Below the pieces are notes generated by a model that was not told where the DNA came from, searched no databases, and saw nothing but the letters and a program-made list of their open reading frames with translations. A stretch of 64,000 nt of DNA from Patescibacteria group bacterium (GTDB lineage: Bacteria; Patescibacteriota; Doudnabacteria; UBA920; O2-02-FULL-48-8). The first letter of the stretch is position 1; every line of letters starts with the position of its first letter. Positions 2,356 through 46,446 of this stretch are shown here, piece after piece. The position numbers and the translations under genes were made by a program. The stretch lies in the NCBI GenBank assembly GCA_036278915.1, contig DASUKB010000001.1, positions 7,259-71,258 on the forward strand. The letters run 5' to 3'.

Positions 2356-2399
<44 letters not shown>

Positions 2400-2935: not shown

Positions 2936-2968
<33 letters not shown>

Positions 2969-3463: not shown

Positions 3464-3560
<97 letters not shown>

Positions 3561-3970
3561 GTAAGCGAGGAACCTTACCAAGGCTTGACATTCTTCTGCA
3601 AGCGCACGGAAACGTGTGACCTTCGAGGGTGAAGAACAGGTGCTGCACGGTTGTCGTCAGCTCGTGTCGTGAGATGTTCCCTTAAGTGGGAGAACGAGCG
3701 CAACCCCCATGTTATGTTGATTTTCATAACAGACTGCCGGCGTTTAAGCTGGAGGAAGGCGGGGATGACGTCAAATCAGCGTGGCTCTTACGCCTTGGGC
3801 GACACACGTGCTACAATGGATAGGAACAATGGGACGCAACACCGTAAGGTAGAGCAAATCCTCTCAAAAACTATCCTCAGTTCAGATTGAGGGCTGCAAC
3901 TCGCCCTCATGAAGCTGGAATCGCTAGTAACCGCAAATCAGCCTCGTTGCGGTGAATACGTTCTCGGGTT

Positions 3971-4001
<31 letters not shown>

Positions 4002-4341
4002 GGTAAGTACCCAATATTTGCGCAAGCGAACGAAGGTAAGTATCATGACTGGGGTGAAGTCGTAACAAGGCATCGGTAGCGGAAGCTGTCGATGGATCAC
4101 CTCCTTTCTAAGGAGAATTCTGCAGAAACAGGAATCATTTCGATGAATCCTGCGGAGCAGTAATGATGGTCGATTCAGAATTGAAGCTCGCAAGAGCAGA
4201 TATTCTGAACACATCAAGACTCTGACGTTTATGTGGTTTTCGAAAGAGAATCGCAATCTTATTCCCAATAAATTGTCTGGAACCTGAAGGGTTTCTTATG
4301 ATGGAAAGCCTGGTGGCCTCACGGTCACAGGCTTTTTAAAT

Positions 4342-22116: not shown

Positions 22117-23163
22117 ATGTTATTTGCCAAACAAAAAAACCAACTCGGCATAGATATTGGCACGTCCAATATCAAATTGGTGGAACTTAAACCAACGGAA
22201 CAAGGGTTTGTTTTAAATACATATGGAATAGCCAATGTCTCCTATAGTTTGGCGGGCAAAGACAGCGCATCGGCTATTACGCAGGCCGCGACAGTACTTA
22301 AGGAGCTTATGAAGCGTTCGGGCACGACCACTACCAAAGCGGTCGCAAGTCTTCCCAACAATGTGGTGTTTACATCCGTTATTGAATTGCCCAAAATTCC
22401 GGAAAACGAGATGAAGAAAGCCATAGAGTTTGAGGCCAAAAAATATGTGCCTCTGCCTTTGGAAGAGGTTGCTCTTTCCTGGAGTATAGTCGGGGACAAA
22501 AATGCCGTCATTAAGGAGACGGGGATGAGGGCTTCCGAAGACAAGCAAAAGATCCTTTTGACTGCAGTACCAACTGTGGTCATAGACAATTACATAAAGA
22601 TGTTCCATCTGGCCGGGGTTACGCCGCAGGCACTAGAAATCGAAGCACTGGCTCTAATCCGATCCGTAGTTGGTGAAGATGTCAAATCCATTTTGCTTAT
22701 AGATATCGGAGCTAAAAGCACAAGCATCAATTTGGTGGACAACAACTATCTTCGGTTATCCAAATCGTTGAGTGTCGGCGGAGATACTATTACCAATAGT
22801 TTGTCCCAGAGCCTGTCTGTCAACTTTGCCCGAGCCGAACAATTTAAAAAAGACTTTGGCATGACAGAAGAAGGTTCTCAGATTCCGCACGTTATCCGGC
22901 CGGTGCTTGATTTAATCAAGAACGAAGCAAGCCAGCTCATAAATTTATTTGAAAGCCGGGGTAATGTTCTGGGAAGAGTCGTTTTTTCCGGAGCTGGTTC
23001 CAGACTTCCAGGCCTACCGGAATATTTCGCTGGTTTGGGCAAACCAGTATCGCTGGCCAATCCTTGGACTCGGGTTGTTTATCCGCAAGATTTAAAGCCG
23101 GTTATAAATCCCTTGGGCATTAATCTAGCCGTGGCAATAGGTCTTGCAATGCGACCAAACTAA
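22117..23163 (+). CDS. pilM: type IV pilus assembly protein PilM (actin-like ATPase fold)
   Basis: N-terminal LGIDIGTSNIKLVEL; 348 aa; first gene of a pilMNO cluster. Confidence 0.85.
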   Translation: MLFAKQKNQLGIDIGTSNIKLVELKPTEQGFVLNTYGIANVSYSLAGKDSASAITQAATVLKELMKRSGTTTTKAVASLPNNVVFTSVIELPKIPENEMKKAIEFEAKKYVPLPLEEVALSWSIVGDKNAVIKETGMRASEDKQKILLTAVPTVVIDNYIKMFHLAGVTPQALEIEALALIRSVVGEDVKSILLIDIGAKSTSINLVDNNYLRLSKSLSVGGDTITNSLSQSLSVNFARAEQFKKDFGMTEEGSQIPHVIRPVLDLIKNEASQLINLFESRGNVLGRVVFSGAGSRLPGLPEYFAGLGKPVSLANPWTRVVYPQDLKPVINPLGINLAVAIGLAMRPN

Positions 23164-23179
23164 ACTTTCATAAAACCAA

Positions 23180-23737
23180 ATGCAAGAAATTAATTTACTT
23201 CAAAACAAAATCAAGGACCGGACGCTCCAGTACGAACGTTCTAACCGGATTGTTTTGGTTATATTTACCCTCATAGTTCTGGCAGAGCTTGCCTCAGTCG
23301 GTGGTTTGTTGCTTTTGACCAAAAGTACCAATAGTAAATCAGCTGATGTCGCAGCTAAATCGGCAGACATCCAGAATTCCATGGACTCAAGCCAGAGCGA
23401 TTTGACTACGGCCAAAGGTGTGCAAGCCCAACTTAAAAATGTTAGTGCTATTTTGACTAACCGGCTGTACTGGACTTCGTTTTTTGATCAGATCTCAAGC
23501 TTTATCCCAACTAATGTTCAATTAAACAACATCAGCGGCGAAAACCAGGATAATCAATTTCAACTCCAGGGCACGGCTCCCAGCTATTCAGATGTCGGCC
23601 GGATAATTTTGGCTTTCAGTACTTCGGATAAATTTCATGATGTGAAACTGACAACGCTTGCCCCGTCCGGCGGAACGACTGCGGGTTTTGATTTTGGTTT
23701 AAGCTTTACCGTGGATAATTCAATATTTAAGAAATAG
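23180..23737 (+). CDS. pilN: type IV pilus assembly protein PilN-like
   Basis: N-terminal INLLQ motif and single TM helix, directly after pilM. Confidence 0.7.
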   Translation: MQEINLLQNKIKDRTLQYERSNRIVLVIFTLIVLAELASVGGLLLLTKSTNSKSADVAAKSADIQNSMDSSQSDLTTAKGVQAQLKNVSAILTNRLYWTSFFDQISSFIPTNVQLNNISGENQDNQFQLQGTAPSYSDVGRIILAFSTSDKFHDVKLTTLAPSGGTTAGFDFGLSFTVDNSIFKK

Positions 23738-23738
23738 T

Positions 23739-24284
23739 ATGAGCTTCTCCGCAAAAAGTATCACTTCATTGATCCTGGTCGTAGGCGCAGTTGTGTTGGG
23801 CTATTTTGTGGTATTACCGCGTTGGAATGCTTACAGCGCTGCTAAGCAGGTTTTGGCCACCAACCAAGAACACGAAACGCAGTTGGAACAAAGCCAAACC
23901 CAACTGGATGCATTTCTGGCCGAATATAAAGCCCACACCGCAGATGCACAAACTTTGAATCAGGCTCTGCCGTTGTCCCGGCCCCAAATTTATGACGTGC
24001 TCAACAGTTTGGACGTCCTTACAGCTCAAAGCGGTCTGGCTTTGGGTGCAACTGGTTTCCAGGATACACCACAAAGCGACACGTTGAATGCCGCGTCCGA
24101 TTCCATACAGCCTATAGATATGACACTATCCGTATCGGGTGACTATAACGGCTTCAAAAATTTTATAAGTCTCTTGGAAACTAACCTCCGATTGATTGAC
24201 GTCAATTCGGTGTCTATTCATTCAGGAACAGCGGCCAACGTTTTAGATTTTACTATCTCTTTAAGGACCTATTACCAACAATAA
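23739..24284 (+). CDS. pilO: type IV pilus assembly protein PilO-like
   Basis: single TM plus coiled-coil periplasmic domain in canonical position. Confidence 0.6.
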   Translation: MSFSAKSITSLILVVGAVVLGYFVVLPRWNAYSAAKQVLATNQEHETQLEQSQTQLDAFLAEYKAHTADAQTLNQALPLSRPQIYDVLNSLDVLTAQSGLALGATGFQDTPQSDTLNAASDSIQPIDMTLSVSGDYNGFKNFISLLETNLRLIDVNSVSIHSGTAANVLDFTISLRTYYQQ

Positions 24285-24288
24285 TTTT

Positions 24289-24624
24289 ATGCCAGCCAAT
24301 AGAAACAAATTATATATCACAATTATCGTCATCTGCCTGTTGGCCACAGGCTTGGTGTTGTATTTTGGATTTTTCAAAAGTTCTGGAGGCAATGGACCAA
24401 TTCCTGAGTCGCACCCTGTAAGTACTGACGTTACTACGACCCCTGACACTACTATCACCACCGGTTCTTTAGATGTGGTCAATCTTGGCGCGCCAGCGGT
24501 TTTTCCGCAAGACACGACTTTTGACTGGAAATTGGTGGATTCCGATGCATTTCAGACGCTGAAACCTCTGCCGCCGCTTTCGCAAGGACCGTTGGGGCGA
24601 GACAATCCATTTACGAACCCCTAA
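24289..24624 (+). CDS. membrane-anchored T/P-rich hypothetical (possible PilP-like)
   Basis: position between pilO and pilB; one TM helix. Confidence 0.35.
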   Translation: MPANRNKLYITIIVICLLATGLVLYFGFFKSSGGNGPIPESHPVSTDVTTTPDTTITTGSLDVVNLGAPAVFPQDTTFDWKLVDSDAFQTLKPLPPLSQGPLGRDNPFTNP

Positions 24625-24627
24625 ACT

Positions 24628-26394
24628 ATGGCTCAAACAGGTACTGTGACAAAAGCTCCTCCGGTAGTCAGCTTTGAGAACTTCTTGGTGGAAAAGAAGT
24701 TTTTAAGTGCGGAGGCTTTGGCTAAGGCCCAGACCGAATCCACGACAGCCCACCGCAACCTGTTTGATTATCTGGTTTCAGAAAAATATATCGCTGAGGA
24801 AGATTTAACCCAGGCTCGGGGTTTGTTTTTTAACCTGCCCTACGTGGATTTGCGCAATAAGACCATCAAGAAAGAAGTAGTTGCAGCGGTTTCACGCGAT
24901 ACTTTGGCGAATTACAAATTTATTCCGTTTGACCTCACTGGTAATGTTCTCAAAGTTGCGGTTACGGATCCCACAAACCTCTCAGCGCTGTCCGCGCTGG
25001 AATTTTTGTCCCAGAAGGACAATCTTAAGATAGAGACTTACATTACCTCGTTTGCCAGTTTCCTGTCGGCTTCGCGCAAATCCGGCAATCTAACGACCGA
25101 AGTTTCCCAGGCACTACGAGAAGTTGCGAAAAAAGAACAGGAATTCCAGGATAAAAAAGTCGTCCGGACGGAGAAACCGCTGGAGCAGTCAATTGTCGAC
25201 GAGGCTCCGATTTCCAAAATCGTGGATGTGGTTCTGCGGCATGCCATTGAGGGCCGCGCCTCTGACATTCATATTGAACCAACTGAAGACGACCTGCGCG
25301 TCCGATACCGTATTGACGGCGTGCTGCATTCTTCTTTGATCCTTCCCAAAAGCGTGCATTCGGCCATAGTCTCGCGCGTAAAGATTTTGTCTAATCTCAA
25401 AATTGACGAGCAGCGCCTGCCGCAGGACGGCCGGTTCCATATCAATTTGGATGGCAAGCCGATTGATTTCCGCGTCTCAACGTTTCCAACGGTCATCGGT
25501 GAAAAAGTCGTGTTGCGTATTTTGGATAAGTCCACGGGTGCTCCTACTCTTGAGGAGCTTGGAATTTTTGGCAAGCATCTGGAAATGGTTTTGGATTCAA
25601 TAAAAAAACCACACGGTATGTTCCTTATGACCGGTCCTACCGGATCCGGCAAATCCACAACGTTGTATTCAATTTTATCCATGCTCAACCAACCCGGAGT
25701 AAATATAGTCACATTGGAGGATCCAGTGGAATATTTCATGGACGGGGTCAACCAGGCGCAGGTCCGGCCGGAAATTGGCCTGACATTTGCCTCGGGACTC
25801 CGATCCATTTTACGCCAAGATCCAAACATCATTATGGTCGGCGAGGTCCGGGATCGCGAGACAGCAGAACTGGCAGTCAACTCCGCGCTCACCGGCCACT
25901 TGGTATTTTCTACCCTCCATACAAACAGCGCGGCTGGGGCTATCCCGCGACTTATGGATATGGGCATTGAACCTTTCCTGCTGACCGCATCGTTGAACCT
26001 GGTTGCGGCCCAGCGTTTGGTCCGTAAAATCTGCGACAAATGCATTACCGAAACCAAGCCTACTGCTGGCATTGCCGAAATTATCAAAAAGGAGTTAGCT
26101 GGTGTGAAAGCGGAAGATTTGAAGGGGATTGATGTTAACCAGACCAAAGTCTTTGTGGGGCGAGGATGTCCCGTGTGCGGCAACACTGGTTACCGGGGCC
26201 GGATCGGAATTTATGAATTTATCAAAGTCACGCCAAAAATTCAGGAGCTTATCGAATCCCGGGTTTCTGCTTCAAAAATTTCACAGGTCGCCCTGGAGGA
26301 AGAGGGGATGATTACGATGCGTCAGGATGGCGTAATTAAGGCGTTGAGAGGTCTAACCACAGTTGAGGAAGTGGTGCGGGTCACGAAAGAATAA
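24628..26394 (+). CDS. pilB: type IV pilus assembly ATPase PilB (GspE family)
   Basis: N-terminal GspE-N domain, Walker A GPTGSGKST, tetracysteine CPVCGNTGYRGR. Confidence 0.92.
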   Translation: MAQTGTVTKAPPVVSFENFLVEKKFLSAEALAKAQTESTTAHRNLFDYLVSEKYIAEEDLTQARGLFFNLPYVDLRNKTIKKEVVAAVSRDTLANYKFIPFDLTGNVLKVAVTDPTNLSALSALEFLSQKDNLKIETYITSFASFLSASRKSGNLTTEVSQALREVAKKEQEFQDKKVVRTEKPLEQSIVDEAPISKIVDVVLRHAIEGRASDIHIEPTEDDLRVRYRIDGVLHSSLILPKSVHSAIVSRVKILSNLKIDEQRLPQDGRFHINLDGKPIDFRVSTFPTVIGEKVVLRILDKSTGAPTLEELGIFGKHLEMVLDSIKKPHGMFLMTGPTGSGKSTTLYSILSMLNQPGVNIVTLEDPVEYFMDGVNQAQVRPEIGLTFASGLRSILRQDPNIIMVGEVRDRETAELAVNSALTGHLVFSTLHTNSAAGAIPRLMDMGIEPFLLTASLNLVAAQRLVRKICDKCITETKPTAGIAEIIKKELAGVKAEDLKGIDVNQTKVFVGRGCPVCGNTGYRGRIGIYEFIKVTPKIQELIESRVSASKISQVALEEEGMITMRQDGVIKALRGLTTVEEVVRVTKE

Positions 26395-26398
26395 CTTT

Positions 26399-26749
26399 AT
26401 GAGGAAACTTTTATTTATAAATCCGGACCCAACACTTGCGGCAATTTACAAGAGATCACTGCTGCAGCATTTTGACGTGGAGGAGACCGAAAGCGGTTTG
26501 GAAGGGTTGCGTCTAGCCAAGCTTTCACATCCTGAAATTATAGTAAGTGAATATGTTCTGCCGGATATTGCGGTCTCGTCATTACTGCAGCAGCTGCGCC
26601 GTAATCCCAGGCATATCTCAACGCCGGTGATAATTTTAAGCAGACGGGCTCCAACAGTGGATGCTTTGAATTGGGGGGCGCAGGCTTGGCACCGAACGGC
26701 GGAGACTGGGCCGGAACTATTTGCCGAATCGTGTTTGAAATTTTTATGA
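26399..26749 (+). CDS. CheY-like receiver-domain-like protein (degenerate)
   Basis: MRKLLFINPDP start and receiver-like alpha/beta pattern; the phosphoacceptor Asp is not obvious. Confidence 0.45.
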   Translation: MRKLLFINPDPTLAAIYKRSLLQHFDVEETESGLEGLRLAKLSHPEIIVSEYVLPDIAVSSLLQQLRRNPRHISTPVIILSRRAPTVDALNWGAQAWHRTAETGPELFAESCLKFL

Positions 26750-26897
26750 GTGAAAACATATGTCGGGTAGTAGAAATTTGATATTTGTTCGCGTAACGAA
26801 CAAATCAAGAATGCAATTAATTCAACTCACCCGCTGATTGTTAAAATAGGTATTTAAACTTTCCAAATTGGTCTTAAATCAAATTTTCACTACCCAT

Positions 26898-27977
26898 ATG
26901 TATAAATCTACGGAACTTGAAATCAACAAATTGTTGGCAATTGTCTTGCAGAAAAATGCATCAGACCTGCACTTAGTGGCAGGCAAGCCGCCGACGATCC
27001 GCATAGACAGTCGTCTGACAGAGCTGAAGGAGTACGACGTGCTCTCAGGCGCTGCAATTGCCGCCATTGTGGAAGTGCTTTTGGGCGATGATGTGCGCCG
27101 CAAACAGTTCAAGGAAAACTTGGAACTGGATTTTTCTTATGCATACAAAGATAACGTCCGGTTCCGAGTCAACGTTTATATGCAGAAGGGTTACGTCGCG
27201 GCTGCGCTCCGGCTTATTGCCAGCAGTATCCAAACCGTGGAGGAACTCAACCTTCCCGAACAGTTGCTGAAGTTTACAGATTACAAACAGGGTTTAGTGC
27301 TGGTGGTCGGACCGACTGGGCACGGCAAATCCACAACTTTAGCCGCGCTCATAGACCGAATCAACCACTCGCGCGAAGAAAATATTTTGACCATAGAAGA
27401 TCCAATAGAATACGTTTACATTGCCGACAAATCACTCATTAACCAACGCGAAGTCGGGCAGGACACGAAAAGTTTTGGCCGTGCTCTACGTTCGGCTCTG
27501 CGCGAAGATCCTAATGTTATTTTGGTCGGTGAAATGCGCGATTATGAATCAATCGCCACCACCATCACCTTGGCCGAAACTGGGCATCTCGTATTTGCCA
27601 CTCTTCATACGAATGACGCAGCACAGACGATCGACCGTATAATTGACGTTTTCCCCGCCTACCAGCAGAATCAGACCAGAAGCCAATTATCCACTATTCT
27701 TTTGGGCGTGATTTCCCAGCGCCTCCTGCCCAAAATCGGCGGCGGCCGACTTCCAGCCGTGGAGATTATGATCAACAGCAATGCCGTGTCCAATGTTATC
27801 CGTGAGGGTAAAACTTATGAACTGCCAAACATTATAAATACGTCCGCCACCCAGGGCATGATTTCCCTGGACCGAAGTTTAGCCGCAATGGTTCAGAAAA
27901 ACTTGATTACGCGGGAAGATGCTTTGCTTTTTGCGGCAGATCCGGATTCATTGCGCGGGCTCATCGGCGGCAGTTAA
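26898..27977 (+). CDS. pilT: twitching-motility ATPase PilT
   Basis: Walker A GPTGHGKST, His-box, about 360 aa; start chosen at MYKSTELEINKLL (ORF track begins at 26868). Confidence 0.9.
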   Translation: MYKSTELEINKLLAIVLQKNASDLHLVAGKPPTIRIDSRLTELKEYDVLSGAAIAAIVEVLLGDDVRRKQFKENLELDFSYAYKDNVRFRVNVYMQKGYVAAALRLIASSIQTVEELNLPEQLLKFTDYKQGLVLVVGPTGHGKSTTLAALIDRINHSREENILTIEDPIEYVYIADKSLINQREVGQDTKSFGRALRSALREDPNVILVGEMRDYESIATTITLAETGHLVFATLHTNDAAQTIDRIIDVFPAYQQNQTRSQLSTILLGVISQRLLPKIGGGRLPAVEIMINSNAVSNVIREGKTYELPNIINTSATQGMISLDRSLAAMVQKNLITREDALLFAADPDSLRGLIGGS

Positions 27978-27999
27978 TTTTTAAAATTTAGCGACACAT

Positions 28000-29202
28000 A
28001 TGGAATATACATACCAGGCCAGAGACGAGAAAGGCAATTTACGCACAGGCACCGTGGAGGCGGCAAGCGAAGCCGCGGCTTTTGATTCGCTCAAAAATCA
28101 CGGATTTATAGTCATAAGCCTTGGCGCATCCCAAAAAAGCGGCTTTTTGGACAAGTTTAATTTTCTCAATCGAGTTTCGCCCAAAGACATAGTTTTGTTT
28201 TCACGCCAGCTGTCGACGCTTATAAACGCCTCAGTCCCCATAGTCCAGTCTTTGCAGATCCTTCAGTACCAGGTCAGTTCCGTAAACCTGCGCAAGATTA
28301 TAATAGAAATTACGCAAAAAGTTGAGTCAGGCGACAGTCTGTCATCAGCTCTGGGCCAGTACCCGCACGTATTCTCTGCGCTCTATGTTAATTTGGTGCG
28401 TTCCGCAGAATTATCAGGCACCCTAGACAGTGCATTTAATTATTTGGCCAACCAATTGGAAAAAGATTATGATATGCGCGGCAAAATTATCGGCTCGCTG
28501 ACGTATCCGGCGTTTATCGTTTGCGCCCTGTTTGTGGTTGGATTTTTGATGTTTATCTACGTCTTGCCGCCGTTGGTGGGCGTGTTGCAGGAATCCGACG
28601 TCGCGCTGCCGTTTACGACTAAAATTTTAATTTCCACCACGCATTTCGTGCAGAATTTTTGGTGGCTGATTATTTTCATCATCTTTGGTGGCGGTCTAGG
28701 GTTGCGGTATTACTCCCAAACTTTCGGCGGCAAGTACGCGATGGACTATATTAAGGTTAAAACTCCGTTCATTGGCGGCATATTTCAGAAAATCTATATG
28801 GCGAGGTTTTCACGCAATCTCGCGACCCTCGTGGCCGGCGGCATTCCGATTGTCAAAGCTTTGGAGTCTGTAGCCGACATCATAGGAAACCAGGTTTACC
28901 ACGACATAATTATGGATGCAGCGCAGCAGGTCAGAAACGGCAAGTCGATTGCCATGGCTTTGGTGGACCGGCCGGAATTTCCTCCAATTATTTCGCAAAT
29001 GACGCAAATTGGCGAGTCCACAGGCAAATTGCAGGATATTTTGGATAAGCTGGCCGGGTTTTATGAAAAGGAAGTCAATACCGTGCTCTCAACCTTGACG
29101 ACGCTTCTGGAACCGGTGATTATGGTTCTGTTGGGGTTGGCGGTGGCAGTCATGGTTGCAGGAATTTTGCTGCCGATATATAATTTAGCTGGTGCACAAT
29201 AG
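28000..29202 (+). CDS. pilC: type IV pilus platform protein PilC (GspF family)
   Basis: 400 aa, two GspF repeats, three TM segments. Confidence 0.9.
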   Translation: MEYTYQARDEKGNLRTGTVEAASEAAAFDSLKNHGFIVISLGASQKSGFLDKFNFLNRVSPKDIVLFSRQLSTLINASVPIVQSLQILQYQVSSVNLRKIIIEITQKVESGDSLSSALGQYPHVFSALYVNLVRSAELSGTLDSAFNYLANQLEKDYDMRGKIIGSLTYPAFIVCALFVVGFLMFIYVLPPLVGVLQESDVALPFTTKILISTTHFVQNFWWLIIFIIFGGGLGLRYYSQTFGGKYAMDYIKVKTPFIGGIFQKIYMARFSRNLATLVAGGIPIVKALESVADIIGNQVYHDIIMDAAQQVRNGKSIAMALVDRPEFPPIISQMTQIGESTGKLQDILDKLAGFYEKEVNTVLSTLTTLLEPVIMVLLGLAVAVMVAGILLPIYNLAGAQ

Positions 29203-29358
29203 CAGCCCATGTTTGATACAAAATTAAAGTGAAACCTCAAGTTTATAAGGGGGATTAAGGGGACTGAAAAATTGCCAAATAGTTGGCTTATTTTCCAATT
29301 TCCTTTCTGCCTCTGATGAATCAAAGAGGTTTCCTAAATGGAAGGGGGTGAAATCAAA

Positions 29359-29814
29359 ATGCAAAAATTAAAGAAATATTCAGGTTTTACATTGATCGAA
29401 CTTTTGGTGGTTATTGCCATCATTGGTATTTTGGCCGCCGTAGTTTTGGTTTCGTTAAGTTCGGCCCGCGCCAAATCACGTGATGCCCGAAGAATTTCGG
29501 ACATGAACCAAATGCAGACCGCGTTGGAATTGTTCTATAACGATACTGGCGCGTATCCTGCGACTGTGGCGACGGATGGTACGGGTACAATTACTTGCGG
29601 CACCGGTGATTATTTGGATCCAGTTCCAAAAGATCCAACCGGCACCGGGTCATTCGTTTACACCTATGCCGGAACTGGGACAGGTGGAAGTACCACTGTT
29701 TGCGGTGGCACAGTAAACACCAAGACTGATTATAGCATCAGTTTCACGACAGAACAGCCGAGTTCTTTGGGAGCAGCCGGAACACACACGGCCACGAGCA
29801 GCGGTCTCCGTTAA
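29359..29814 (+). CDS. type IV pilin, probable major pilin
   Basis: KKYSGFTLIELLVVIAIIGILAAVVLVSL; G/T-rich C-terminal domain with a Cys pair. Confidence 0.9.
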   Translation: MQKLKKYSGFTLIELLVVIAIIGILAAVVLVSLSSARAKSRDARRISDMNQMQTALELFYNDTGAYPATVATDGTGTITCGTGDYLDPVPKDPTGTGSFVYTYAGTGTGGSTTVCGGTVNTKTDYSISFTTEQPSSLGAAGTHTATSSGLR

Positions 29815-29863
29815 GTTTACTTCTCTTCTCCAAGATTTTCTTGGAGAAGGATAGTGCACTTAA

Positions 29864-30268
29864 ATGAATGACTCCACTATACAAAAACCAAACCCGATAA
29901 AGTTTGCGATTCTGTGTCTTTTGGCCTTGCTGCTGGTGGTGACTGCCACAGCAGCTTTTTTTGCAGGGAGAACGCGCGCGCAGAATCAAATCCGGCTGTC
30001 AGAAGTCGCTCTTATCCAGAAATTTCTTGAAGCTTACAAACTAGACAACGGCTACTATCCCGCTGCGGTTAATAACCAGCCTTCAAGCTTCCAGAAATAT
30101 TTATCCAGCTTGCCTGTACCTGCTTCGGATTCCAAATGCGGAAGTGCCAATCAATATATTTATGAGCAACTCAACTCGGGTTCCAGTTATAAATTGTCAT
30201 TTTGCTTAAACTCAAAAACGGAAGGTTTTTCTGCGGGTATTAATTCTTTTGGGCCTCCAGCAAATTGA
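29864..30268 (+). CDS. pilin-like protein with a non-canonical N-terminus
   Basis: hydrophobic N-helix, then NGYYPA motif shared with the neighbouring pilins and a C-terminal Cys pair. Confidence 0.45.
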   Translation: MNDSTIQKPNPIKFAILCLLALLLVVTATAAFFAGRTRAQNQIRLSEVALIQKFLEAYKLDNGYYPAAVNNQPSSFQKYLSSLPVPASDSKCGSANQYIYEQLNSGSSYKLSFCLNSKTEGFSAGINSFGPPAN

Positions 30269-30274
30269 ACCCGT

Positions 30275-30751
30275 ATGAAAATTTCACCACGATCGGGATT
30301 TACGGTCATTGAATTGCTTATAATTGCCGCGGCTGGGGCTTTGGCTATATCCATCGCGGCTGTTATTTTAAGCAGTATCCGTTTCAAAAGCGATAATATA
30401 ACAGCCTTGCGCGATTCCAGGCGGTTGCAGGATTTGGCGTCGCTTCGGGTGGGTTTGGATTTATATCAATCCCAGGCCGGAGGATATCCGGATTCTTCTC
30501 TTTGGCATGCTGGCGGTGAAATCTCCTGTGGTAAAGATGAGGGTATCTTGCGCATTCCCTACGATCCCTTGGTCGGCAATCCATATACCTATAAAGGGGA
30601 AGGGGACAAAAAAGCATCTCCTGGTTGCGGAGGTAATGTTTGGAGCAAGTATGCCGTCTCTTTTTATACCGAAGGAAGCACATATCTTGGACCAGCTGGC
30701 GATTACTGCCTGACTTCGAATCGGGGATTTGTAGTTGGGAGTTGCCCATGA
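30275..30751 (+). CDS. type IV pilin-like protein
   Basis: SGFTVIELLIIAA prepilin motif. Confidence 0.8.
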   Translation: MKISPRSGFTVIELLIIAAAGALAISIAAVILSSIRFKSDNITALRDSRRLQDLASLRVGLDLYQSQAGGYPDSSLWHAGGEISCGKDEGILRIPYDPLVGNPYTYKGEGDKKASPGCGGNVWSKYAVSFYTEGSTYLGPAGDYCLTSNRGFVVGSCP

Positions 30752-31533
30752 TTATAATTTTGGCATTTATTTTTGGTTTGCTGATTGGAAGCTTTTTGAA
30801 CGCGGTTATATATCGCCTCTACCGCAATTTGCCATTGGGCGCGGATCGGTCCATGTGCCCGCATTGTAAACATGTACTAAGCCCTTTGGACCTGGTACCT
30901 ATCTTGAGTTTCATTTGGCTGCGCGGCCGGTGCCGATATTGCAAGGCAAAAATTTCCTGGCAGTATCCAATTGTGGAATTACTTACAGGGATAAGTTTTG
31001 CGCTGCTTGCATATAATTACGGATTACGGATTACGGATTACGGATTCTGGTTTCAGTTGGCATTCATCGCGTTTTTGATTCTGATTGCCGTGTTTGATCT
31101 CAAATATTATTTAATTTTGGATAAAGTTTCAATTCCCGCAATTGTCCTGGCGGTCATTTGGAGGATAGTTTCGGATTTCCACTCGAATAATTTCGGCTGG
31201 CATTCGCCGCTTGCAGGCGGTGTTTTCGGCGCAGTGATTATTTCAGGATTTTTTGGATTGCAGTATCTGGCCTCCCGGGGCCGGTGGATTGGCCTGGGTG
31301 ATGTTAAGCTTGGCCTGTTTTTGGGACTGATTTTTGGAGTGGGGCAAGGTTTGGTTTACCTTTTGCTTTCATACTGGATTGGCGCGTTGGTTGGTTTAGT
31401 TCTAGTGGCGGCCAACCAAAAGAAGATGTCCGGTAAATTGCCATTTGGCACAATCCTCGGGTTTTCTGGTATAATAATGTTGCTATACGGATCAAGTCTT
31501 TTGGCTTGGTATCTGCATCTTGTTGGTTTCTAA
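30748..31533 (+). CDS. pilD: prepilin peptidase PilD (A24 family)
   Basis: CPHC...CRYC zinc-binding N-terminus, polytopic; ATGA overlap with the upstream pilin; ORF-track N-extension rejected. Confidence 0.9.
   Translation: MIIILAFIFGLLIGSFLNAVIYRLYRNLPLGADRSMCPHCKHVLSPLDLVPILSFIWLRGRCRYCKAKISWQYPIVELLTGISFALLAYNYGLRITDYGFWFQLAFIAFLILIAVFDLKYYLILDKVSIPAIVLAVIWRIVSDFHSNNFGWHSPLAGGVFGAVIISGFFGLQYLASRGRWIGLGDVKLGLFLGLIFGVGQGLVYLLLSYWIGALVGLVLVAANQKKMSGKLPFGTILGFSGIIMLLYGSSLLAWYLHLVGF
31016..31043 (+). repeat. tandem heptamer (ATTACGG)x4 plus one degenerate copy inside the pilD coding region
   Basis: read directly: ATTACGGATTACGGATTACGGATTACGGATTCTGG encoding YGLRITDYGF. Confidence 0.9.
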
Positions 31534-31556
31534 AGGCGTTTTTGAAACAAATCTGA

Positions 31557-32135
31557 ATGAAAACAGAATCCAAAATTTTATCGGGATTTACCCTTATAGA
31601 ACTGCTTGTGGCCATGGCTATAATTGCATTGTTGGCAACGGTAGTTTTGTCTAACTTCAACCAAGGCAATAGATCCCGGGCCACGGCCCTGGCCGCAGAC
31701 GTGGTCTCTAACTCATTCCGGACCGCGCAAAATGATGCGCTTAACCCCCAGAGCTTTCCGGGTTTTTCGTGCAGTTCGGGTAAGGTTCCAGCCGAGTATC
31801 ACCTCTACTTTGATTCCAATACTCCGACTTATTACACTCTCAATGCGGTGGACAAATGCGGTGATGCGCCGGTCCTGCTTCAAAGGTTTACACTGGCAAA
31901 TAATGTCGTGATCAAAAAAAATAATGGTTTAGCTGTGGATAGCACGGGCGTAGGGAGTGACGGGGGAACGATAGAACTTAAATTTCTACCGCCCTTTTCT
32001 CAGGTTACCGCGTCATTCAATGGCGGCGATTATGAAGAATTTAATTCAGCCGAAGTGATTTTGGAGTCTTCAGACGGGAGTTCATCTCGGACTATCACTT
32101 TTGACGGTGTATCCGGTCGGGTGGACATTAAATAA
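31557..32135 (+). CDS. pseudopilin/minor pilin
   Basis: SGFTLIELLVAMAIIALLA. Confidence 0.8.
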   Translation: MKTESKILSGFTLIELLVAMAIIALLATVVLSNFNQGNRSRATALAADVVSNSFRTAQNDALNPQSFPGFSCSSGKVPAEYHLYFDSNTPTYYTLNAVDKCGDAPVLLQRFTLANNVVIKKNNGLAVDSTGVGSDGGTIELKFLPPFSQVTASFNGGDYEEFNSAEVILESSDGSSSRTITFDGVSGRVDIK

Positions 32136-32139
32136 TTTT

Positions 32140-32928
32140 ATGCGCAACCAAACAGGCCAGACTCTTATAGAAACAATTGTCGCCATCTTTATTTTGACGA
32201 CGGCGCTTACCGCTGGTCTAGCTTTGACCATTTACGTTTTTTCAAATTCACAATCCAGTATAAGTTCAATTGCCGCGACGAATCTTGCGAGACAGGGCGT
32301 TGAAATTGTCCGTAACATGCGTGACAGCAATTGGCTTCAGGCCGACAAGGCAAACACCAGTGCCGGCAAACTCCAGGCCTGCAGCGGCCTAGGCAGCGTG
32401 CTTTGTTATCCACAAGCCTACCACGAGAATAATAACGATAATATGATTATTCGTCTTAATTCTACGGACACCAACACGTACACTAACTCCAGCACACATC
32501 CTTGTAGTGGCAACTTATGCAAAAATCTTAACTGGAGCATGAGCCTCAACAGTTGGCCACAGCTTTCGCCGTTTTCCGCGGCCTCTTCTACGGGTATTTC
32601 TCCGACCGCGTCTGGAAAATATAATGTCTATTTGCATCCAGATGGCGTTTACTATAACGAAACGAATCCTTCCGGTCTGCCATGTTCACCAAATTGCGTA
32701 CCGGATTTTATCCGCAAAATAAAACTGACCAAAACCACTGGCGGCATTTTCCCATCTGACGGCAACTGCACTACCAGCAAAACCGATTGCTATGGACTCA
32801 AAGTCCAAGTTTATGTCGCTTGGAGTAGCAAGCATTGCCCGAGCATCACAGACCAGGATCCGGAAAAACTCAACACTTCTTGCAAAGTGGTTTTGGAAGA
32901 AGACCTGACGAATTGGAAGGATTACTAA
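32140..32928 (+). CDS. minor pilin (PilV/PilW-like)
   Basis: GQTLIETIVAIFIL class III signal-like N-terminus; multiple Cys. Confidence 0.7.
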   Translation: MRNQTGQTLIETIVAIFILTTALTAGLALTIYVFSNSQSSISSIAATNLARQGVEIVRNMRDSNWLQADKANTSAGKLQACSGLGSVLCYPQAYHENNNDNMIIRLNSTDTNTYTNSSTHPCSGNLCKNLNWSMSLNSWPQLSPFSAASSTGISPTASGKYNVYLHPDGVYYNETNPSGLPCSPNCVPDFIRKIKLTKTTGGIFPSDGNCTTSKTDCYGLKVQVYVAWSSKHCPSITDQDPEKLNTSCKVVLEEDLTNWKDY

Positions 32929-32929
32929 A

Positions 32930-33586
32930 ATGGAGCATGAGACACAAAACATGAAGCATGAATCCGCTTTTACCCTAATCGAAGCCATAGTTGCGGCCTC
33001 TGTGTTTGCGTTAGTTGTATCGTCGATCTTGGGCATATATGTCTCGGTTCTGCATTTAGACACGCGCACACGCGCGCAGAGGACATTGGCAGACAATAGC
33101 CGTTTTATAATGGATTTTTTTGGCAAGGAAATTGACAATGGCCACATTGATTATGCCTCTTATCCAAATAACGTTATCTGTAAAAATGGCACCGCGATGC
33201 CGTGTGATATAAGCGGCAATGATGCTCCGGGCACCACTGAGCTGTATATCGTGAACCAGGCCGGAGACGCTGAACACTTTTATCTGTATAATGAAAATAC
33301 GAAAAGCATTGAGCATACGTATTCCAATTGCCAGACAGTGAATTGTGATTTGGTCTTGACCAAAAATTCCGGCACCGCGTCCAACCTGAATTCCTCGGAT
33401 GTGCGAGTGACCAATCTTCAATTTTACACCTCTCCCACCAGCGATCCTTTCAGCAGTGCCAAAAATTTCAGTTACCAGCCGCAGGTCACGGCTGTGTTGG
33501 AACTGACTGCTAATACAGGAAAACGCGACCAGATAAAAATTAATTTACAGAGCACTTTTTCAGAGCTCTATTACCCAAGCCGATGA
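32930..33586 (+). CDS. minor pilin (PilW-like)
   Basis: SAFTLIEAIVAASVFALV N-terminus; true start may be the internal Met at 32951. Confidence 0.65.
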   Translation: MEHETQNMKHESAFTLIEAIVAASVFALVVSSILGIYVSVLHLDTRTRAQRTLADNSRFIMDFFGKEIDNGHIDYASYPNNVICKNGTAMPCDISGNDAPGTTELYIVNQAGDAEHFYLYNENTKSIEHTYSNCQTVNCDLVLTKNSGTASNLNSSDVRVTNLQFYTSPTSDPFSSAKNFSYQPQVTAVLELTANTGKRDQIKINLQSTFSELYYPSR

Positions 33587-34557: not shown

Positions 34558-34597
34558 AAAAAAAAATTAAACCCGCCAGGTTGGCGGGTTTAATTAA
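34558..34597. terminator. bidirectional rho-independent terminator
   Basis: AAACCCGCCAGGTTGGCGGGTTT with A-run before and T/A-run after. Confidence 0.75.
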
Positions 34598-37411: not shown

Positions 37412-40400
37412 ATGAAACAAAAACAAAATTTGAAAAAAAAAGTTGACAAAATTGGAGTGATCATCCTAATTTCCTTGATTTCTGCTGGGCAGTTTTTTGT
37501 TATGCCCAAGAAAGCGGGAGCAATCACGGAAACATATTACGTGGATGCCACAAACGGCAGCGATGCCAATACGGGAACGGATACCTCTCATCCATGGCAA
37601 ACGATAGCAAAAGTCAATTCATCAGTTTTCCAACCAGGAGATTCCGTACTATTTAAACGCGGGGAAACATGGCGGGAAACTTTGATCCCGCCGTCTTCTG
37701 GCACATCTGGAGATGTAATCAGTTTTGGCGCGTATGGAAGCGGGACGAATCCGGTAATCACCGGCGCGAATTTAATTTCTTCGTCATGGACACAGGCCAC
37801 GGAGCCGTATGATATCGTCCTCCAAAGGACAAGCGGAGTAGACTCTTCCAACTTCCCAAGACTTACTGGAGAGTCTGGCGGAACTACATACCCGGACGGC
37901 ATAGTTACAAGATTTAATTCTACTGATGGGACTTGGGGTAATCCATTTGATGGAGATCTTTACTTCAAAACCTATGACGACAGTTCAGCGGTTGTGGACC
38001 AGCAAGCGCTTAGTAATTTTCCATTTTTAAATTTGTCGAACGTTGCCAGTCAAACCAAATGGTCGCAGGGGTACAAACCGAGCGTTAATTTTTCTCTTTC
38101 TCAAATTGTACTGAAGATGTATAAATCGGGCAATCCTACAGACAACGTTTTTGTCACCATCAACAAAGATGAAAACCAAGCACCTGGTGCAGTGATTCCA
38201 AACGGACAAAGTTCTAACGTTAGCTCGACCACTCTGACTTCCACTTCTCCGGGGACTGATGTTACTTTTACTTTCCCCGTAGCGCCCAGCCTGGTCCACG
38301 ATGCTGTTACCAACGTCTGGCAGACCACAGTGGCGACCCAACCCGAAGTCGTGGAATTTGACGGAGTGTTTGGGAACAAAAAAACATCCGTAGACGACCT
38401 CGCGCAGGCGAATGATTGGTATTGGTCGGGAAACACATTGTATGTATATTCCACAACAGACCCCGCTGTTACGTATGCGAATCCAGGAATTGAGATTGCT
38501 CAGCGGAATTATGCTTTGGACTTTAATGCCAAAAGCAATCTCGCGTTCCAAGATATAGACTTTGTGGCTGGTAATACTTATGACATTTTTATGGAAGGCA
38601 CTGCGACCGATATACTTTTTGATTCAGTGGGAATCTATGGTGCCTACGAAGAAGGCATAAACCACCAAAGTGCGTTTCACGCTTCAAACATTGATATCCA
38701 GAATTCAACCGTTGCTTACAATGGCGCAGAAGGAATTGCGGCTGTGGGGAACAGCGACCATTGGATTATTCAAAACAATATTGTGCACAACAACGGTTAC
38801 ACCGACGAAAGCGGAGGAGTGGAGAATACCTGGGGGTCAGGGATCAAACTCGTGGGTGCGATCGGTGGGATTACTGTTTCGGACAGCATTGTCCAGTATA
38901 ACGACGTTTACTATAACGGATATAAAGATAATGGAATAACGAGAGTCCATGCTACGGCCAATAAAGGATTTGGCATTTGGCTTGATCTGGTAGATTCCGG
39001 CGATGTCCAGTCAGACGGCAACATTATCCGTTACAATAATGTCCACAACAATGCTGATTCGGGATTGATGATCGAAAAATCCCGTTATCAAACTTGGTAT
39101 GGCAATGTTTCGTATAATAACGCAGAATACGGCTTGCGCGTGGATGCGGACGCGAATGGGCCTGTATTGCACAACAATTTCTTCTACAACAATAGTTTCT
39201 TTGGCAACAGTTCGGGAATTTATGCGGCAGGCGGATATATGCAGGATGGCAATTACATTCAGGATAACGTGTTTGAAAATAATATATCTTCCGGCAATAC
39301 AAATTATCAGCTGCTCGCCAAATGGGGTGGCAATAACGACGGCACGCTTGGTTCCGGGAATATTTACGAATACAATTCTTTTGGACCGGAATCCCCGAAC
39401 TTTATAGAGTGGGGTGATGGTGTTTTCAAATCCACCTACGCCCAATTTGATGCAGCTTACGGCGCGGACACTCATTCTGCTTCCGGGGACCCATCGTTTG
39501 CCGCGGCCGGTTCCGCTAATTTTGCCTTAAGCTCCGTCTCTCCGGCTATCGATTCCGGATTGAATTTAGATAGTGTATTTCAGGCGGGTCTGGCCGCTGG
39601 TTCTGTCTGGCCGTCGTCGGTGACCACTCTCAGTCAAGACGGCAACGGGTCAGGTTGGGACCTCGGAGCGTTTGTGTATACACAATCAACTTTGCCGTTA
39701 GTTTCAATTACCAATCCCAATACCACGAATATTTCTGGCAAGTTGACGATTAGCGCTTCCGTGACCGTCAGCCAGCCCGCGACTATATCCCAAGTCCAAT
39801 TCCAATTGGATGGATCGGATTTGGGAAGCCCGGTCACCTCTGCACCGTACAGCATGGCATTAGATACGACGACTCTGATTAATGGGTCGCATACGATTAA
39901 TGCCACAGCCTTAGACAACTTCGGCAATACGGGAAGTTCAACAATCACCGCATTTGTTTCCAATGGCGGCAGCGGGCTTCCGGCAAGTGCCTTCAATCCT
40001 CCGGTAATTCCGGATGGCGGATTTAAAGTCATAATCAATAATGGCGATACCAGCACAACGGCTCAAACAGTTACATTGGATATGAATGCCGGATCCGACG
40101 TGGCCCGGATGGCAGTTTCCAACAGTTCGGATTTGGATTCAGCTGGGCAGCAAACCTATGCTCCTGACACTACTTGGGATTTGTGCGCCGGGTTCTCCTC
40201 CTGCGACGCAGGTTTAAAGACTGTGTATGTGAAATTCTATACATCTTACGGGCACGCCTCGGATCTTATTTCCGCTTCAATTAATTTCACGGCTACAGGG
40301 TCCGGTCAGGCCACATCGGTGAACTCAAATCTCGTAAACGACAACGGGACATATTATCTTATCCAAAATGGCCAAAGGCTGGGCATAACCTCTCCGGGAA

Positions 40401-40879
40401 TTCTCTTTACTTACGGATATGAATTCAAGGATGCGAGAGGATACTCTCCAGCCGATGCAAATATCCCGCTGGGACCTTTACTTACTCCTGACAATGGATC
40501 CTTAGTCAAGTCAGATAAAAATCCGACTGTATACCTTATTTCTCAAAATCAGAAACACGGCTTTGTGTCGGAGGAAGTCTTTCTGGGGTTGGGCTATAAA
40601 TTTTCATCCGTACTCACAGTCACCGATCCGGAACTTGCAAGACTTTCAAATGGTTTGGATCTCGCGACAGACCAGGCCAGTCATATGGACGGAATAAATG
40701 TTTTAGACAACCGGGGCACCATTTATTACATAGACCACCAGACTCTGCGGGCTTATCCATCGCAAGATATCTACAACAGCTGGCATTTGGATAATAATTT
40801 TTCAAATGTTGTTGCCGCGAACGCGTATGATTTGGCCTTGCCCAGAGTGAAGGACATTGACTTCAGACAGTCAAATTAA
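37412..40879 (+). CDS. giant secreted surface protein: signal/TM anchor, parallel beta-helix region, Ig-like domain, and a C-terminal 60-aa repeat module shared with the 6501-9413 protein
   Basis: beta-helix repeats NNIVHNNG/YNNVHNN; Ig-like segment around VSITNPNTTNISGKLTISA; C-terminal TYYLIQNGQRLGI / PTVYLISQNQKHGF / GTIYYIDHQTLRAY repeats. Confidence 0.65.
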   Translation: MKQKQNLKKKVDKIGVIILISLISAGQFFVMPKKAGAITETYYVDATNGSDANTGTDTSHPWQTIAKVNSSVFQPGDSVLFKRGETWRETLIPPSSGTSGDVISFGAYGSGTNPVITGANLISSSWTQATEPYDIVLQRTSGVDSSNFPRLTGESGGTTYPDGIVTRFNSTDGTWGNPFDGDLYFKTYDDSSAVVDQQALSNFPFLNLSNVASQTKWSQGYKPSVNFSLSQIVLKMYKSGNPTDNVFVTINKDENQAPGAVIPNGQSSNVSSTTLTSTSPGTDVTFTFPVAPSLVHDAVTNVWQTTVATQPEVVEFDGVFGNKKTSVDDLAQANDWYWSGNTLYVYSTTDPAVTYANPGIEIAQRNYALDFNAKSNLAFQDIDFVAGNTYDIFMEGTATDILFDSVGIYGAYEEGINHQSAFHASNIDIQNSTVAYNGAEGIAAVGNSDHWIIQNNIVHNNGYTDESGGVENTWGSGIKLVGAIGGITVSDSIVQYNDVYYNGYKDNGITRVHATANKGFGIWLDLVDSGDVQSDGNIIRYNNVHNNADSGLMIEKSRYQTWYGNVSYNNAEYGLRVDADANGPVLHNNFFYNNSFFGNSSGIYAAGGYMQDGNYIQDNVFENNISSGNTNYQLLAKWGGNNDGTLGSGNIYEYNSFGPESPNFIEWGDGVFKSTYAQFDAAYGADTHSASGDPSFAAAGSANFALSSVSPAIDSGLNLDSVFQAGLAAGSVWPSSVTTLSQDGNGSGWDLGAFVYTQSTLPLVSITNPNTTNISGKLTISASVTVSQPATISQVQFQLDGSDLGSPVTSAPYSMALDTTTLINGSHTINATALDNFGNTGSSTITAFVSNGGSGLPASAFNPPVIPDGGFKVIINNGDTSTTAQTVTLDMNAGSDVARMAVSNSSDLDSAGQQTYAPDTTWDLCAGFSSCDAGLKTVYVKFYTSYGHASDLISASINFTATGSGQATSVNSNLVNDNGTYYLIQNGQRLGITSPGILFTYGYEFKDARGYSPADANIPLGPLLTPDNGSLVKSDKNPTVYLISQNQKHGFVSEEVFLGLGYKFSSVLTVTDPELARLSNGLDLATDQASHMDGINVLDNRGTIYYIDHQTLRAYPSQDIYNSWHLDNNFSNVVAANAYDLALPRVKDIDFRQSN

Positions 40880-41241: not shown

Positions 41242-41704
41242 TGGAACAAGCTAATGCCAAAACAAACAAAAACCTCAAGTTTTAACGTAAAAAATATGAA
41301 ATTCTCCAGCAACTCACTTCAACGAAAGGCGGTTATGTAAACTGGCGCTTTAGTTTGTGCCCAGAATTCAACCGCCGAAAGGCGTTTTTTTGTTCCTTAC
41401 AACTAACATCTAGAATTCAGTGCTTCACCGCATTGCTTGACTTTAAGCAGGTTCTGAAAGTAAGCACTGTATTCTGGATGTAAGCGGATAGAACTTTAAC
41501 AATTTACCGGCATCTAAGAGATATATTTTCAGTTTGCCAAACGTATGAGAGATGATGAGTCTCGAAGGTAGGCGTTTAGCAAAACATAAGTTAGTGCTTA
41601 TGAATATATCTGAATCCAAATCCTCGGCATTGTAACCGGGGTAACTCTGGCTTAACTGTCGGAGTATAAAAAATAGCAATCACTAATTGCTAGTCAAGAA
41701 TCTG

Positions 41705-45168
<3,464 letters not shown>

Positions 45169-45239
45169 TTAAATTTTTGACTAGCGTTTTGTGATTATTA
45201 TCACAAGTTCATTTACATCCCCGCTTTCGCGGGGACAAG

Positions 45240-45778: not shown

Positions 45779-46134
45779 ACAACTCCGACGTTTTGCATAA
45801 CAAAAGTCGGAGTCCTGACTTGCATTTTTGTGCATCGTCGGGATTGACGGCGATTTTTGCTCTTTCCATAATGATTCCAAACTGCTATAATTAATCAGTT
45901 GGAACTAATATGGATTTGCTAATGCAAAGATATTCGCCTTCGCTTAAATTGGTAGGACTTATAATCGTTATCGCGGCCATGGGATTTATAATCTTCGCGC
46001 TTACGAAAAACACCCTGCCAATGCAGTAATACAGCGCTTCGCACTGTAATTTCTAAGCCCTAATATCTAAGCTCTAAACAAGATTAGAAATTAGTAATTA
46101 GAACTTAGAAATTGCAGCACGTAAGTGCTGAATA

Positions 46135-46252
46135 TCTCCTCGTGCTTCAAGGGCCGCTGCCCCACCCGATCCCATCCCGAACTCGGAAGTGAAACGCGGC
46201 ACCGCTCATGATACTCCAGTGTAAGACTGGTGGGAAAGTAGGCAGTGCGGGG
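46135..46252 (+). rRNA. rrf: 5S ribosomal RNA
   Basis: CCACCCGATCCCATCCCGAACTCGGAAGTGAAACG loop C/helix III block and 3' GAGAGTAGG-like segment; boundaries approximate. Confidence 0.8.
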
Positions 46253-46446
46253 TTTTTTATTTATATTGAGGGACGAACCTACGGTTCTTCCCTCAACGCG
46301 CCGTCAGCAAAGCTGATTTTTGCTTCGCAAAAACAAGCGGCGCTGCTCCTTTCTCCCTTCTTAATTGACCTAATTGGTCTTTTTTGTTGTCCTAAAAAAT
46401 AGTGGCTTCGTTTAGAAAATTTTTTTGTGTTGGGCGAGGAAATTTG

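Follow-up and report, generated by a model that had tools for sequence, protein, structure and literature searches.

A conserved heptanucleotide array within pilD as a probable frameshift switch in a Patescibacteria lineage

Several described repeat systems resemble the one reported here. In Neisseria, a poly-G tract in pilC controls piliation, and cyanobacteria carry dispersed tandem heptanucleotide repeats known as short tandemly repeated repetitive (STRR) sequences. Dispersed heptanucleotide repeats, with the unit TAACTGA, are reported from Beggiatoaceae as well (PMC4679880). In the CUS-3 prophage of Escherichia coli K1, neuO, which encodes a capsule O-acetyltransferase, has an (AAGACTC)n tract in its 5' coding region, with 3 to 53 units and 65.6% of genomes in the OFF state (PMC13001214). 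In Haemophilus influenzae, 7-bp repeats lie in the promoters of hmw1A and hmw2A, and (AATTTTG)14 lies inside the hmw1a open reading frame (ORF) of strain PittAA (PMC2651432). Here we describe a heptanucleotide array inside pilD, the gene for the type IV prepilin peptidase, in a stretch of 64,000 nucleotides (the window) of contig DASUKB010000001.1, from a Patescibacteria group bacterium of the Doudnabacteria. We consider it probable that this array is a reversible frameshift switch in pilD, at present in its ON state.

Tandem Repeats Finder gave a period of 7, 4.4 copies, 100% matches and the consensus ATTACGG at 31016-31046, and direct reading gave four perfect units followed by ATT. By codons the array reads AAT TAC GGA TTA CGG ATT ACG GAT TAC GGA TT, which in codon register corresponds to (R)ATTACG four times plus GATT. 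The initial annotation had described four perfect copies with a degenerate fifth copy behind them, and this description held under both approaches; the codons TTC TGG of the fifth unit (F100 and W101) open transmembrane helix 3. The repeat is therefore uninterrupted, has a unit length that is not divisible by three and lies in frame inside pilD. To judge its length against chance, the longest perfect period-7 run was scored in 100 first-order Markov simulations of the window, with a mean of 15 nt and a maximum of 18 nt. The observed run of 31 nt is far longer, and chance is excluded as its origin. Perfect runs of the other periods from 4 to 12 in the window are all 24 nt or shorter.

31016-31046, plus strand: perfect heptanucleotide array (ATTACGG)x4.4, from Tandem Repeats Finder and direct reading; encodes N90 to F100
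31044-31050, plus strand: degenerate fifth unit ATTCTGG, with 5/7 bases matching, marking where the array ends on its 3' side

The loss of one unit in the window pilD leads to a predicted product of 107 aa and the gain of one unit to a product of 118 aa. Both end before D117 and D185 and contain no catalytic aspartate, which agrees with the earlier statement that a slip of one unit would shift the frame of pilD. The codons of the four invariant cysteines lie 5' of the array and are thus kept in the OFF products. A gain or loss of three units would leave the frame intact and make the turn of a membrane hairpin (see below) seven residues longer or shorter.

30748-31533, plus strand: pilD, type IV prepilin peptidase/N-methyltransferase, 261 aa plus stop, identified by its Pfam domains; in frame (ON)
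30856-30942, plus strand: codons of four invariant cysteines (C37, C40, C62 and C65) in the N-terminal cytoplasmic domain, upstream of the array
31076-31078, plus strand: TGA ending translation after the loss of one unit, in the computed frame
31095-31097, plus strand: TGA ending translation after the gain of one unit, in the computed frame
31096-31098, plus strand: GAT codon of the first catalytic aspartate, D117, downstream of the array
31300-31302, plus strand: GAT codon of the second catalytic aspartate, D185 (GLGDVK), downstream of the array

The pilD ORF matches Pfam A24_N_bact at residues 8-90 (114 bits, cut-off 23) and Pfam Peptidase_A24 at residues 104-217 (45.3 bits, cut-off 26.5). 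Since both domains are matched, the ORF at 30748-31533 is a prepilin peptidase, and on its sequence features it is classified as a bona fide type IV enzyme (MEROPS A24A; PilD/PulO). D117 and D185 (within the GxGD-type motif GLGDVK, together with G182 and G184) are invariant in 40 homologues, and C37, C40, C62 and C65 correspond to invariant columns of the homologue alignment. The protein is identical to an NCBI entry (P0001, named “prepilin peptidase [Patescibacteria group bacterium]”) that is encoded on one 386-kb contig.

Natural alleles differing by one unit were found in a related species of the Candidate Phyla Radiation (CPR). A profile search with the N-terminal domain retrieved 120 short PilD fragments, one of which (P0139) is encoded on a 4.8-kb contig, L219, where pilD is broken into two ORFs, one with the A24_N and one with the Peptidase_A24 domain. 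The change of frame falls exactly at a perfect (TACAACT)x4.7 array. An intact frame needs 2, 5 or 8 full copies (in the ACAACTT register) and L219 has 4; after the addition of one unit, the computed product has 264 aa with all motifs intact. This predicted protein was found exactly by sequence look-up among ~15 billion proteins; eight contigs, each from a different sample and with 5.7 units, encode it. Its cluster is represented by P0242, which is the product of the C-terminal ORF on L229, a further contig with 4.7 units. The OFF consensus sequences belong to ENA ERZ27248922 and ERZ27248897, and ON sequences to ENA ERZ27248954, ERZ27248936 and ERZ27248885 and to the JGI samples 3300028276, 3300028193, 3300028169 and 3300028272. 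Pairwise comparison of OFF and ON contigs gave the following.

L219 (OFF) versus L224 (ON): 3791 nt compared, 0 mismatches, one 7-nt gap
L229 (OFF) versus L225 (ON): 3811 nt compared, 4 mismatches, one 7-nt gap
L219 versus L229 (both OFF): 3346 nt compared, 47 mismatches, no 7-nt gap

Because the OFF contigs differ from each other by 47 mismatches and yet each nearly matches an ON contig, the loss of one unit arose, or became fixed, separately in two strain backgrounds, and pilD is otherwise undamaged there. These are ON and OFF alleles of an orthologous array: the locus of this relative is syntenic with the window (pilD, small pilin-like genes, ligA), and the array aligns to the same turn of a PilD that is 42% identical to that of the window.

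The position of the array is conserved far beyond this pair. PilD homologues with ca. 46 to 65% identity have no indel at the array site, and many of them have a 7-aa-periodic peptide there. Among the 120 best homologues, which span this range, 69 have an 11-aa segment at the array position, and 47 of these segments fit the three-phase translation of a perfect heptamer at ≥8/11 residues; among control 11-mers from the same proteins, 1/120 reaches 7 matching residues. Most homologues in the range of 50 to 65% identity retain a 7-nt-periodic array here, always of ~4.5 units. Repeat units were predicted from the peptides before the DNA was fetched, in nine lineages, and all confirmed arrays share the Asn codon at which they begin and comprise 4 units and a further 4 to 5 nt, a 7-nt periodicity at one codon throughout the clade. 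The window and two other lineages (L082 and L153) have an identical perfect array of 31 nt, and the same GATTACG type is present with one mismatch in L083 and three in L081. Other lineages have other units, namely (AATTTAC)x4.7 in L204, (AATTTTC)x4.6 in L205-207 and (AATTTGG)x4.7 in L208, and L209-218 carry a degenerate version of the array. Intact genes thus share a single, nearly invariant length of 4.4 to 4.7 units (5.7 in the L221 lineage). Other lengths that preserve the frame are rare: P0093 has three units fewer and lacks exactly seven residues, and P0225 and a few others are longer.

The codons within the array indicate the level at which this conservation operates. In pairs of GATTACG-type genes with 55 to 71% protein identity, the codons of identical residues in the array are the same at 10/10 or 10/11 positions, against 31 to 41% outside it (Fisher's test across the three genes with perfect arrays, p between 2e-5 and 9e-4), so that synonymous sites are frozen within the array and saturated elsewhere in the gene. 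Different units, in turn, encode unrelated peptides (DYGLRIT, NLQFTIY, NFQFSIF and NLEFGIW). Because synonymous codons are conserved in the array and other units encode unrelated peptides, the constraint acts on DNA: it is the repeat, and not the peptide, that is maintained across a large clade.

The repeat units themselves are replaced over time, and unit type is uncorrelated with protein relatedness. Pairs of proteins with the same unit average 58% identity outside the loop (range 50 to 71%) and pairs with different units 59%; the closest protein pairs (83%, 80% and 79%) carry unrelated units, and GATTACG, present in 10 of 36 clear arrays, is scattered over the family. Some of the units form a chain of single substitutions (GATTACG-AATTACG-AATTTCG-AATTTCC-AATTTTC-AATTTAC). 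We infer from this pattern that arrays are homogenised by the gain and loss of units, at times collapsing and regrowing from another seed, and that regrown arrays would always return to the one length that suits both the reading frame and the hairpin. Single-unit homogenisation would need out-of-frame intermediates that later yield in-frame descendants.

Residues 90-100, NYGLRITDYGF, are encoded by the array and fall precisely between the matches to the two Pfam domains. An AlphaFold2 model of the window PilD, built on 40 homologues (mean predicted local distance difference test [pLDDT] of 91), consists in this region of a helix at 72-91, a six-residue turn at 92-97 and a helix at 98-120 that ends just past the invariant D117. 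The K/R-rich segments of PilD are 23-72 (nine K/R and the four invariant cysteines), 177-180 and 225-230. Because the turn encoded by the array is charge-neutral and the K/R-rich, Cys-rich loop 23-72 lies upstream, the positive-inside rule would have this turn, between transmembrane helices 2 and 3, face outward. No sequence relative of the window PilD was found among solved structures, and for this reason the topology is derived from the secondary structure of the AlphaFold model together with the positive-inside rule. The repeat, which had been assigned to the coding region of a cytoplasmic loop, would according to the model encode the turn between helices 2 and 3 instead, and the cytoplasmic loop lies upstream of it.

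Perfect repeats with periods of 4 to 12 and ≥3 units were surveyed in 106 kb (the window and 12 related loci), and the only ones found were the 7-nt arrays inside pilD. A genome-wide tendency to make heptamers was accordingly rejected as the sole cause, given that these 106 kb hold no other perfect array. One of the loci, L205, has a second perfect array, (ACTACTC)x4.4 at 1933-1963, located in the next outward loop of pilD. This second loop is a 10- to 12-aa insertion that distinguishes the 260-aa from the 250-aa members of the family; the window pilD has the longer loop but no repeat in it. As a background control we used a profile scan of GTDB genome contigs, which gave only distant PilD genes (33 to 48% identical, many phyla). 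Among 80 of these, three have a perfect period-7 run of ≥18 nt, and two of the three belong to Saccharibacteria, with runs at the same two loops. In a metagenome scan for (ATTACGG)x3, 79 of the 80 matches listed (L084-L163) are unrelated heptamer arrays in other taxa, and only L153 is pilD, in frame.

Some further observations concern the second loop and the heptamers of the metagenomes. The peptide LTTHYSLLTTHSH and similar ones occur in the second loop of P0018, P0023, P0030 and P0033. Many truncated PilD proteins of the Parcubacteria type (P0130, P0145, P0167, P0174, P0175, P0186 and P0227) end within or shortly behind a heptamer-like second-loop peptide, such as ..IFNFQFSILQF or ..GIWNLEFGI (compare positions 403-429 of the L017 gene), which suggests frameshifts at the second array in these lineages. 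Among the metagenome matches listed, ATTACGG arrays of 3 to 12 units are common in unrelated contigs and are often flanked by variant heptamers (CGGTTCA, GGATTGC and CCAATGA), resembling repeats of the cyanobacterial or Beggiatoa type.

The mechanism that we propose would operate as follows. With 4.4 units, pilD is in frame and ON, and prepilin peptidase would be made. Slipped-strand mispairing in replication would add or remove one 7-nt unit, and the shifted frame would run into a stop 30 to 50 nt further on, giving a fragment of 107 or 118 aa without the catalytic aspartates. Prepilins would then remain unprocessed and no pili would form (OFF), until the opposite slip restored the gene. There would be a single ON length because the frame is kept only at steps of three units and the hairpin tolerates only a short turn. 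The array would stay perfect because lineages repeatedly cycle through the loss and gain of units, with an occasional collapse followed by regrowth from a different 7-nt seed. The window array would switch at a useful rate, reversibly and with adaptive value, for example through the escape from pilus-dependent phage or the alternation of detached and attached life stages.

A number of observations weigh against such a switch. The window lineage is on record as a single contig, in the ON state, and no length variant was seen for it or for any GATTACG-type array. The predicted products of the window, L153, L204, L205 and L082 with one unit more or one unit fewer were all absent from the ~15-billion-protein collection, a search of low power given that these are mostly singleton lineages; exact look-up gave no variants of the second L205 array with one or three units fewer or more (-1, +1, -3, +3), and none of its first array with -3 or +3 units. 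A profile search for C-terminal fragments recovered many short PilD pieces, none of which could be assigned to a slip of the array in the Doudnabacteria-like clade; Doudnabacteria-type pieces begin inside helix 2 and in frame, with the break upstream or at the end of a contig. The documented ON/OFF pair lies in a PilD only 42% identical to that of the window, with a different unit and a different ON length. An array of 4.4 units passes the cut-off of ≥3 units used for H. influenzae heptanucleotide repeats (PMC2651432) and fails that of ≥5 units used by PhasomeIt (PMC6321876), and the switching rate of so short an array may be low. The copy number in intact genes is nearly invariant, unlike that of neuO, and the wide range of repeat numbers between strains that characterizes neuO or the tetranucleotide repeats of H. 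influenzae was not seen. Since cultured Saccharibacteria did not permit the deletion of their locus-one type IV pilus genes (PMC12206443), OFF cells may be dead ends, at high cost, instead of a useful phase. Consensus assemblies, moreover, yield neither switching rates nor proof of reversibility.

The initial annotation had proposed phase variation at this locus and called its architecture classic. Orthologous ON and OFF alleles and maintenance at the DNA level speak for the first of these statements, and the missing length variants in this lineage against it; the word classic does not suit an array with an almost invariant copy number in intact genes, compared with the 3 to 53 units of neuO. 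It had also suggested comparing copy numbers in related strains, which gave 5.7 versus 4.7 units in the relative and no variant in the GATTACG-type lineages. Invariance across strains had been named there as the finding that would discard the switch, and would wrongly have rejected it.

Three further cases involve broken or variable genes. Five C-terminal ORFs on long contigs (P0245, P0250, P0254, P0281 and P0286) begin with M followed by VE.., in helix 2 and in the normal frame, and in these genomes the N-terminal domain is disrupted or absent 5' of the array. A split pilD beside a degenerate array in L220 (JGI Ga0490012_039123, at ~440-470) was rejected as a slip of the array: shortening T7 to T6 restores the frame, and a homopolymer slip or a sequencing error in the T7 just after the array seems the better explanation. 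The glycosyltransferase gene upstream of pilD (L209-L218, ~650-1500) was rejected as a second variable tract, its calls of 240, 229, 153 and 70+211 aa being due to N runs and scaffolding (L210 and L212) and to the choice of start.

Several of the observations raised above would also be expected from a mutational hotspot without selected switching, a by-product of slippage that is tolerated for lack of constraint on the turn peptide, with OFF variants as deleterious dead ends that are purged. Intact genes share one fixed length, exact look-ups and fragment searches found no OFF allele in the Doudnabacteria-like clade, type IV pilus genes are essential in cultured Saccharibacteria (PMC12206443) and the array is short, with 4.4 units. 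We nevertheless regard this explanation as unlikely, if one to be taken seriously. Without a return from OFF to ON, point mutations would erode the units, and yet perfect arrays persist amid saturated synonymous sites; the arrays are confined to pilD in 106 kb and have arisen in two different loops; and the OFF alleles form the assembled consensus in two samples with different strain backgrounds, in a gene otherwise free of lesions. Conservation of position, length and periodicity in the DNA, independently of the peptide, would also fit a cis-acting DNA or RNA element, for instance a tandem regulator site for the downstream pilin genes with a periodicity selected for binding. Such an element is improbable, since proteins that are 80 to 83% identical have unrelated units and a binder would need a new specificity each time. 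In addition, both ends of the array fall exactly on borders of codons and helices, no RNA structure is evident for a direct repeat, no protein emerged as a candidate binder, and the natural one-unit variants disrupt the gene.

The recurrence of the same peptide in at least 10 homologues could be taken to mean that selection acts on NYGLRITDYGF and that the DNA repeat is incidental. This is contradicted by the codon test, in which synonymous positions are identical in the array and saturated in the rest; the unrelated peptides of other homologues are each the three-frame read-out of another heptamer, and the 7-aa period of the peptide is explained only by a 7-nt repeat in the DNA, all of which leaves this possibility very improbable. 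An assembly or sequencing artefact has nothing specific in its favour beyond the fact that repeats can in principle be misassembled, and we give it practically no weight: the identical 31-nt array was recovered in independent JGI, Logan and NCBI assemblies (L153, L082 and the window). The arrays, of 31 to 40 nt (33 to 40 nt in the relative), also fall far below k=141, the value read from contig names with k141 that we take to come from MEGAHIT, and a collapse of the repeat in assembly is unlikely for that reason. A reversible frameshift switch in pilD thus remains our preferred explanation.

The gene that would be switched lies within a complete type IV pilus operon.

22117-33586, plus strand: type IV pilus operon around pilD, with substrates and machinery dependent on PilD

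Its order is pilM, pilN, pilO, pilB, pilT, pilC, three pilin-like genes, pilD and three more pilin-like genes, followed by ligA. The neighbours of pilD thus include N_methyl pilin genes as well as pilMNO, pilB, pilT and pilC, and the window pilD product is the only prepilin peptidase seen in the operon.

Elsewhere in the window, the other rows with period 7 are imperfect AT-rich inverted repeats, located in 23S rRNA insertions and in the spacer between 23S and 5S. The 23S rRNA match at 41704-45172 spans 3469 nt, against a model of 2925 nt, and thus carries insertions, with sites of note at 41934-42017, 42612-42692 and 43687-43705. Two of the insertions consist of an AT-rich, ~7-nt-periodic sequence followed by its reverse complement (e.g., TTTGAATTTCTAATTTTTAATTTCTAATT ... 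TTAGAAATTAGAAATTAGA) and look like expansion hairpins. The 16S rRNA gene (2349-4107; 1759 nt matched, against a model of 1533 nt) is located ~37 kb from the 23S rRNA gene, so that the rRNA operon is unlinked. The 5S rRNA gene lies at 46138-46253, behind a 23S-5S spacer of ~965 nt with imperfect period-7 arrays at 46047-46113. The only long homopolymers of the window are two A9 tracts, at 34558-34566 and at 37433-37441, the latter at the very start of an ORF of 1155 aa (37412-40879).

Among the surface machineries of Patescibacteria, which are ultra-small and depend on hosts, type IV pili are the best conserved, and cultured Saccharibacteria need them for host binding, motility and survival (PMC12206443). 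A heritable and reversible switch in pilD would let clonal populations keep a non-piliated minority or majority, which bears on the escape from pilus-dependent phages, on detachment and on dispersal. More tentatively, and with somewhat more doubt than belief, we suggest that the array represents an ancient, selectively maintained contingency locus in the pilD of much of the CPR, that is, a master switch of type IV pili. It may extend over Doudnabacteria-like, Parcubacteria-like and some Saccharibacteria lineages, in the outward helix turn and sometimes in the next loop; the array may be renewed by loss, gain, collapse and regrowth, with an ON length fixed by the geometry of the membrane protein. 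If true, the switch would govern host attachment, motility and DNA uptake, and it would point to a bet-hedging life cycle in obligate episymbionts, with piliated, attached cells and non-piliated ones that are possibly phage-resistant or dispersing. In the collection searched, the literature contained nothing linking Patescibacteria or CPR to repeat-based phase variation and no phase-variable pilD; this would then be the first repeat-based phase variation described in Patescibacteria and the first to target a prepilin peptidase. The locus is also an unusually clean natural case of microsatellite evolution under a length constraint, with fixed position and length and units that are repeatedly replaced. 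In practice, what is annotated in CPR bins as a “split” or “partial” pilD may represent an OFF phase and not an error, and the unit count could serve as a simple read-level marker of pilus state in metagenomic time series.

Among the systems described so far, pilC of Neisseria is similar in that a frameshift switch based on a repeat turns type IV pilus expression on and off, but its repeat is a homopolymer in the signal-peptide region of an adhesin and assembly factor, and other pilus-related functions persist. The STRR and TAACTGA repeats share with pilD the tandem 7-nt units; they are abundant, genome-wide and mostly intergenic, whereas here a single array lies at a conserved codon of one gene, the only perfect array in the 64 kb. 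The repeats of H. influenzae are heptanucleotides at a surface adhesion system, with the in-ORF case tied to a frameshift; the hmw tracts, however, are mostly promoter-borne, grade transcription and have 13 to 38 units (PMC2651432), with no evidence for deep conservation or for unit replacement at constant length. The closest likeness is to neuO, where a 7-nt unit also lies in an ORF, slippage shifts the frame, the full-length protein is made in one class modulo 3, and the repeat, translated in three phases, gives a 7-aa periodic peptide. In neuO there are many ON lengths, and the tract is an N-terminal extension whose length modulates activity (PMC13001214). In pilD, by comparison, there are ~4.4 units and a single ON length that would be set by a membrane helix-turn-helix hairpin, switching is proposed from comparison of alleles and sequences, the gene concerned encodes the enzyme that matures every pilin, and it belongs to an uncultivated Patescibacteria lineage. 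The mechanism is thus of a known kind, comparable to that of neuO, and what is new is the target gene, the taxon and an evolution that replaces units at a fixed length.

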